DNA of 64,000 nt from Escherichia coli. Lineage in GTDB: Bacteria; Pseudomonadota; Gammaproteobacteria; Enterobacterales; Enterobacteriaceae. Made by a program: the position numbers and the translations under genes. The stretch lies in the NCBI RefSeq assembly GCF_003018255.1, contig NZ_CP027440.1. One strand, written 5' to 3'. The notes below the pieces were generated by a model that saw nothing but the letters and a program-made list of their open reading frames with translations, was not told where the DNA came from and did not search any database. This document shows, piece after piece, positions 10,959-11,380 of this stretch. Each line of letters begins with the position of its first letter. Positions within the stretch are counted from its first letter, which is position 1.

Positions 10959-11020
10959 GTCTGTCGCTAGTTGTCGACCTCCGCCTGGGGCTTCTCATCC
11001 CCCAGTGTGTGAAATATACG

Positions 11021-11048
11021 AAAAAAAGCTCGCACTTTCGTACGAGCT
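11021..11048 (-). terminator. Intrinsic terminator downstream of serX
   Basis: Hairpin AGCTCG...CGAGCT followed by a U-run on the minus strand, just 3' of the tRNA. Confidence 0.45.
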
Positions 11049-11060
11049 CTTCTTTAAATA

Positions 11061-11148
11061 TGGCGGTGAGGGGGGGATTCGAACCCCCGATACGTTGCCG
11101 TATACACACTTTCCAGGCGTGCTCCTTCAGCCACTCGGACACCTCACC
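11061..11148 (-). tRNA. serX: tRNA-Ser (anticodon GGA), encoded CCA, long variable arm
   Basis: Reverse complement reads GGTGAGGTGTCCGAGTGGCTGAAGGAGCACGCCTGGAAAGTGTG...GGTTCGAATCCCCCCCTCACCGCCA; anticodon loop CUGGAAA gives anticodon GGA. Confidence 0.93.
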
Positions 11149-11182
11149 AAATTGTCGTTCCTGTCTTGCTGGAACGGGCGCT

Positions 11183-11211
11183 AATTTAGGGAAATCATGA
11201 CCTGAGGTCAA
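11183..11211 (-). promoter_or_regulatory. Putative sigma70 promoter of serX
   Basis: TTGACC - 17 nt - TAAATT on the minus strand, followed by a GC-rich discriminator, about 30 nt upstream of the mature tRNA 5' end. Confidence 0.5.
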
Positions 11212-11380
11212 CAAACTTTTTTAAAAAATCGCTCGATTATTCAAACTTCAATCAATATGCAGTTTTAATAAGCGAAATTTGCTTTTTTTGCCACCGACCA
11301 CGGATTTGTTATGCTGCTGGTCTTTGTAGATCATAACGATAAGTGCGAATAAATTTCGCCAACACTCTTCGGGAGTCAGT

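Follow-up and report, generated by a model that had tools for sequence, protein, structure and literature searches.

The dgcT-serX junction of an Escherichia coli chromosome is probably the ancestral form of a locus at which K-12 carries a remnant of O-island 47

In the Escherichia coli contig analyzed here (NZ_CP027440.1; "the window" denotes the whole 64,000-nucleotide stretch under study), the 3' trailer of the serine tRNA gene serX comes immediately after the diguanylate cyclase gene dgcT (ycdT). Comparison with other loci indicates that this is probably the simple, ancestral form of the pgaABCD-dgcT/serX junction. The explanation that best fits all of the observations jointly, and that we consider very likely, is that the short form is ancestral and that the K-12 state was derived from it by island replacement and then by an IS3-associated deletion. 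K-12, and not the window strain, would thus represent the derived state at this junction; its ymdE and ycdU would be what the deletion spared of the right end of O-island 47, and the DgcT of the reference strain would carry an island-derived C-terminal tail. The window allele is common, is annotated by RefSeq, and lies at a locus known to vary; it is thus known strain variation and not a new feature. The variability of the region, O-island 47 (OI-47), and vmpA/pdeT are already described in the literature (PMC8565820, PMC4287979, PMC5635171). The window belongs to E. coli proper: over a 20-kb core stretch, it shares 99.9% identity with strain JNE23-011 and approximately 99.0% with the APEC O78:H4 and APEC O2-211 genomes.

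The features of the interval are listed in Table 1. The gap between dgcT and serX (10959-11060) is exactly 102 bp, as the initial annotation had reported. Its description of this gap as holding only a terminator hairpin was nearly right: the terminator with its 15-bp stem is present, and a second small hairpin also lies in the spacer, of which 100 bp (10961-11060) are serX trailer. Folded as RNA, the spacer reached -37.6 kcal/mol (z = -5.7). The window serX is identical to that of K-12 at 88 of 88 nucleotides, and its GGA anticodon and tRNA fold were confirmed by ARAGORN and Rfam. The serX terminator faces dgcT, and transcription of dgcT may also be stopped there; in short-form strains, the predicted end of serX transcription is no more than about 65 nt away from the stop codon of dgcT. 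No RtT match was found in the window at the Rfam gathering score, or in 10850-11250 at E<=10, and a tandem-repeat search of the window returned nothing. A sub-threshold match to the sRNA family sX4 (window 10993-11159, minus strand; 41.9 bits against a gathering score of 70) spans serX and its terminator, and most likely reflects the tRNA-like portion of the sX4 model. The other Rfam matches at gathering score were Ysr251 (2572-2765, minus), ES056 (16747-16838, minus), ES036 (26932-26974, minus), the PyrC leader (36104-36153, minus), the rne 5' UTR (58701-59037, minus), and SraB (60899-61067, plus), all of which are expected for this region of E. coli.

Table 1. Features of the dgcT-serX interval and its flanks (window coordinates)
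Feature	Coordinates	Strand	Description	Basis
pgaA	6580..9003	-	last gene of the pgaABCD operon, divergent from dgcT	ORF list; annotated pgaA in collinear E. coli records
dgcT (ycdT), MASE4-GGDEF diguanylate cyclase gene	9591..10958	+	455 aa; ATG 9591, stop 10956-10958	
window-specific 45 bp without K-12 counterpart	10916..10960	+	last 13 dgcT codons (KEAEILINRKDDE), stop and 2 nt	
serX 3' trailer	10961..11060	-	single copy, tRNA-proximal part of the K-12 repeat unit	
serX intrinsic terminator	11021..11054	-	15-bp stem, GAAA loop, T7 run	terminator scan
serX, tRNA-Ser(GGA), intact	11061..11148	-		ARAGORN; Rfam tRNA 53.8 bits
serX 3'-terminal 14 nt	11061..11074	-	start point of integrase-bearing islands in other genomes; vacant in the window	
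promoter-like site upstream of serX, TTGACC-17-TAAATT	11183..11211	-		consensus match only
ghrA (ycdW), conserved right flank	11381..12319	+		ORF list; annotation of collinear records

The DgcT protein of the window contains a MASE4 domain (Pfam PF17158, E 2.5e-70, residues 41-274) and a complete GGDEF domain (PF00990, residues 282-439, profile positions 1-161 of 161). Its translation reads RPDD...GGEEF, that is, an RxxD I-site and a GG(D/E)EF active site. RefSeq makes an identical dgcT call of 1368 nt and 455 aa in strain A26. The list of open reading frames starts the gene at a TTG 72 nt upstream of the RefSeq ATG (window 9519-9590), and longer DgcT entries of 465-487 aa exist in databases, apparently as alternative start calls. 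The K-12 protein has 452 residues. As the initial annotation had noticed, the C-termini are unlike: the window protein ends in ...NKVVVKEAEILINRKDDE and that of K-12 in ...NKVVVRDVVNFCESP, with the two differing from residue 443 onward (KEAEILINRKDDE, 13 aa, in the window versus RDVVNFCESP, 10 aa, in K-12). Both alleles should nevertheless encode a complete cyclase, because the GGDEF domain ends three residues before the tails part. In a MAFFT alignment, roughly half of the positions of the two tails were identical over about 30 nt. This was taken as no detectable homology, and the idea that the tails are diverged homologs was rejected. A crossover by homologous recombination with a diverged dgcT is likewise disfavored, as divergence does not rise gradually toward the breakpoint.

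A third tail was seen in E. coli HH97 (L037, NZ_CP116409.1, 2900-2960, corresponding to window 10905-10960), where the 3' end of dgcT is a hybrid: K-12-type sequence extends through GAGGGATGT, after which a 1-nt frame shift leads into window-type sequence (CAGAAATTCTTATC...). The resulting tail, RDVRNSYQPQG before the stop, stands in a K-12-like background with serX directly adjacent, and looks like the product of illegitimate recombination between the two alleles.

The gene order in K-12 MG1655 (NC_000913) is dgcT, IS3D, the ymdE pseudogene, ycdU, and serX, which agrees with the initial annotation, where IS3, ymdE, and ycdU were placed between ycdT and serX of K-12. Homology between the window and K-12 breaks between 10915 and 10916 (codon 442) and resumes between 10960 and 10961. 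From there, the serX trailer of the window (10961-11060) shows approximately 90% identity to three repeat copies in K-12, which belong to an RtT-like array just downstream of serX with a 181-bp unit repeated 3.4 times in tandem (L001, 6962-7584). In every K-12 repeat copy, a 60-bp segment accompanies 19 nt from the 3' end of serX. Rfam reported two RtT matches in the K-12 array (46.3 bits, at the gathering score). The copy number of the repeat depends on the strain, with no extra copy in the window and about two in the divergent Escherichia locus L009.

The nature of the K-12 block becomes apparent from strains in which the K-12-type dgcT tail occurs without IS3, for example cattle strain 107 and an O169:H41 strain. 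In this long form, dgcT is followed by an EAL gene, a FidL-like gene, a winged-helix regulator, and a fimbrial operon; further on are a filamentous hemagglutinin/ShlB pair and a fatty-acid/polyketide-type cluster, and the right end consists of a full-length ACP S-malonyltransferase gene (intact ymdE) and then ycdU. The dgcT-EAL junction of O157:H7 strain PV15-279 is 100% identical to that of the long form. O-island 47 has been described as a 31,727-bp island, z1528-z1556, that includes grvA (PMC8565820), and in EDL933 the gene directly following ycdT is vmpA/pdeT (PMC4287979). The long-form block matches this published island. Up to the last base ahead of IS3D (11 bp beyond the dgcT stop), K-12 shares 99.7% identity with the long form, and the similarity returns, at 98.3%, from a point within ymdE onward; in strain 107, about 31.7 kb separate the points that flank IS3D in K-12. 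The initial annotation had proposed a search for target-site duplications of IS3. No 3-bp duplication was present at K-12 IS3D, whose flanks are TTT and GTG. Because the duplication is missing and the flanks lie about 31.7 kb apart in the long form, IS3D marks an IS3-associated deletion of most of the island, and not a simple insertion. Simple transposition of IS3 is out on the same two counts, the lack of a target-site duplication and a target that is not contiguous. A further IS3-adjacent deletion, the second in the K-12-type lineage, was found in E. coli XYEH3934 (L042, 4450-6064), where dgcT-IS3 is followed directly by the serX trailer repeats, with ymdE and ycdU lost.

A different reading of the K-12 block was suggested by the neighboring tRNA gene: the IS3/ymdE/ycdU block could be a mobile element that integrated at serX, with IS3 added by ordinary transposition. 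In other genomes, serX does serve as an integration site. Similarity to the window ends at 11074, 14 nt into the gene from its 3' end, in Esc15, a musk-deer strain, and strain 107, and beyond that point lies a tyrosine recombinase gene. The 19 nt of serX in each K-12 trailer repeat are also reminiscent of att duplications. However, integrase-bearing islands sit between serX and the trailer, whereas the K-12 block is distal to all copies of the serX trailer, and its left end lies inside the dgcT coding sequence, at codon 442/443. Moreover, the annotation of the full-length form (strain 107, O169:H41) shows no integrase from dgcT to ycdU; the integrase beside ycdU in strain 107 belongs to a separate island that is bounded by a serX 3' fragment. 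A tRNA-targeted integrative island would have a recombinase within the block and would occupy the site between the tRNA and a displaced 3' fragment with its trailer, with direct repeats of the tRNA 3' end on both sides; the K-12 block shows neither the recombinase nor this placement. Together with an IS3 that lacks a target-site duplication and replaces about 31.7 kb, these findings make integration at serX improbable as the origin of the block. The initial annotation had viewed this junction as a strain-variable point at a tRNA hotspot. The variability is real, with at least four major architectures in 5426 genomes and serX in use as an attachment site, but tRNA-targeted integration does not explain the difference from K-12.

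The evidence that the short form came first lies in its distribution. The window-type tail, joined directly to the serX trailer, was found in four classes of dgcT alleles, down to 78% nucleotide identity. The first is the class of the window itself (S9, Esc15, the musk-deer strain, N1131, and AHB22). The second is a chromosomal locus (L044) with approximately 95% DNA identity and 89% protein identity, in which the dgcT-ghrA spacing is 423 bp versus 422 bp in the window. The third comprises plasmid-borne pga-dgcT modules with approximately 91% identity, collinear up to window 11027 (68 nt into the serX trailer) and then continuing into Tra genes. The fourth is the divergent Escherichia locus L009 (NZ_JAATUR010000045.1), which is 78% identical in pga-dgcT and 91.5% identical in ghrA; its DgcT has the tail TEAENLMNWKDDD, and 2 nt separate the dgcT stop codon from the trailer. 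In these classes, the divergence of the tail matches that of the rest of dgcT. The K-12 tail was seen only in K-12-like alleles, and every locus with this tail whose context was read lies beside the island or an IS3 remnant. The polarity was obtained by parsimony over allele classes, not over a species tree. The outgroup evidence consists of L009 plus a protein search and contig look-ups; a scan for DgcT among species representatives with exact peptide words gave this one Escherichia locus and unrelated GGDEF proteins.

The opposite polarity would make the short form the derived one: an OI-47-like island, or its IS3 remnant, would have been deleted from a K-12-like ancestor, and dgcT would have been fused to the serX trailer with a read-through tail. 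Rearrangement does occur at this locus, as the IS3-adjacent deletions and the HH97 hybrid junction demonstrate, and the dgcT bodies of short-form N1131 and long-form O169:H41 are nearly identical (99.2%). However, a deletion cannot make the 45 bp at 10916-10960. A 37-nt core of the window tail, sought with <=8 mismatches, was absent from the K-12, 1943, 107, D6, and JNE25-005 loci, which rules out simple deletion from the long form or from K-12 as the source of the short form. A derived short form is also at odds with the retention of the same tail and junction in classes at about 95%, 91% (plasmid), and 78% identity, and with the restriction of the K-12 tail to one allele class. This alternative is largely refuted, and we give it only a very small chance. 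The similarity of the N1131 and O169:H41 dgcT bodies indicates instead that the state of the island changed, or was exchanged, between closely related backgrounds, for which homologous recombination of the flanks is the probable route; loss of the island in particular lineages is possible.

With the short form taken as ancestral, the history of the junction may be outlined as follows. The starting state would be a dgcT with its native 13-residue tail and a stop codon 2 nt from a single-copy serX trailer, with the trailer terminator between the two convergent genes. An O-island-47-like block of about 34 kb, carrying vmpA/pdeT, grvA, fimbrial, hemagglutinin, and fatty-acid/polyketide genes and ending in ymdE and ycdU, would then have replaced the last 43 nt of dgcT and the adjoining trailer sequence, and DgcT would have gained a new 10-residue tail. 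Since the 45 bp of the window are missing from the long form, this event is better described as a replacement than as a clean insertion. The microhomology at the ends of the island (GGTG...TGTG) is too short to be meaningful. In a second step, an IS3-associated deletion would have removed about 31.7 kb of the block and left IS3D, a 5'-truncated ymdE, and ycdU.

A census of 5426 complete E. coli genomes was performed to estimate the frequency of these forms. A genome was assigned to a class when megablast covered >=80% of a diagnostic query of about 200-780 bp, and the counts are therefore approximate. The K-12-type dgcT-IS3 junction was the most frequent (2299 of 5426 genomes), followed by the short junction (1436 of 5426). 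A phoH-DUF2726-serX arrangement with no pga or dgcT accounted for 1044 of 5426, and the long, OI-47-type dgcT-EAL junction for 389 of 5426. About 258 genomes, such as B379, were unclassified. In 1148 of the 5426 genomes, dgcT, trailer, and serX run uninterrupted; the short junction lacks uninterrupted serX flanks in the remaining 288 or so (1436 minus 1148). Direct dgcT-serX adjacency with one shared tail is thus not the state of K-12 and most E. coli, and the difference that the initial annotation had pointed out stands. These population data also refute the notion that the junction is an assembly or sequencing artefact, which has practically no probability left: the tandem array of 181-bp units and the IS that K-12 carries here can collapse in draft assemblies, but the uninterrupted arrangement is common to 1148 complete genomes, strain A26 is 100% identical to the window over 10800-11250 (451 bp), and RefSeq annotates the same 455-aa dgcT.

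Further variants were observed at this locus. The arrangement of phoH, a DUF2726 gene, and serX is an alternative allele of the whole interval that lacks pgaABCD and dgcT, as in D6 and JNE25-005, and it was found with or without RtT-like repeats. The chromosome of E. coli B379 carries a dgcT of the 78% type, 98.5% identical to that of L009, whose tail is cut off by IS5. Plasmid modules of the pgaAB...-dgcT type (L045-L047; GCA_013595525.1, GCA_007808745.1, and GCA_021067265.1; 511-5535) have TraG, TraI, and Rep3 neighbors, and were evidently captured from a short-form chromosome; the protein of the module is named as Salmonella enterica by its source. Absence of the pga/ycdT region, or its embedding in a different context, has been reported for some strains (PMC5635171). 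The G+C content of the window dgcT is 0.33-0.35, compared with approximately 0.43-0.49 for the pga genes and 0.50-0.55 for most of the neighboring sequence. The low G+C of dgcT and pga, the 1044 genomes without the module, and the plasmid-borne copies suggest that the pga-dgcT module is itself horizontally mobile.

These results are of use for annotation and when c-di-GMP or PGA biofilm regulation is compared among E. coli lineages, and they mean little beyond such bookkeeping. From the sequences, one could imagine that the two DgcT tails differ in stability or regulation, that strong convergent transcription of serX modulates dgcT expression, and that gain of the island rewired c-di-GMP and PGA biofilm control in the K-12-like and O157 lineages; we regard this scenario as highly unlikely.

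In comparison with the b1025-b1032 region of K-12, the window shares the flanking genes pgaA, dgcT, serX, ghrA, ycdX, ycdY, and ycdZ, and its dgcT is 95.6% identical up to codon 442. In all, 3262 bp of K-12 sequence are missing from it, comprising IS3D, ymdE, ycdU, and the 3.4 RtT-like repeats, and 45 bp that encode the other DgcT tail are present instead. The RtT RNA repeats (Rfam RF00391) are tandem units of the tyrT type that include a tRNA 3' end. Homology between the window trailer and the K-12 serX unit covers the tRNA-proximal part of that unit; the trailer occurs only once, and it has neither the 60-bp segment nor a pseudo-3'-end. The integrase-bearing serX islands of Esc15, the musk-deer strain, and strain 107 have the tRNA in common with the window, and those of Esc15 and the musk-deer strain also go with a window-type dgcT tail and trailer; in the window, by contrast, the 14-nt site is unoccupied and neither an integrase nor an island is present. 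O-island 47 of O157:H7 (z1528-z1556, with vmpA/pdeT and grvA) occupies the same dgcT-serX slot and is the full-length form of the block of which K-12 retains a remnant. It is wholly absent from the window, where no EAL gene (vmpA/pdeT) comes after dgcT and the serX trailer follows directly, whereas the genomes that bear the island carry the K-12-type DgcT tail.
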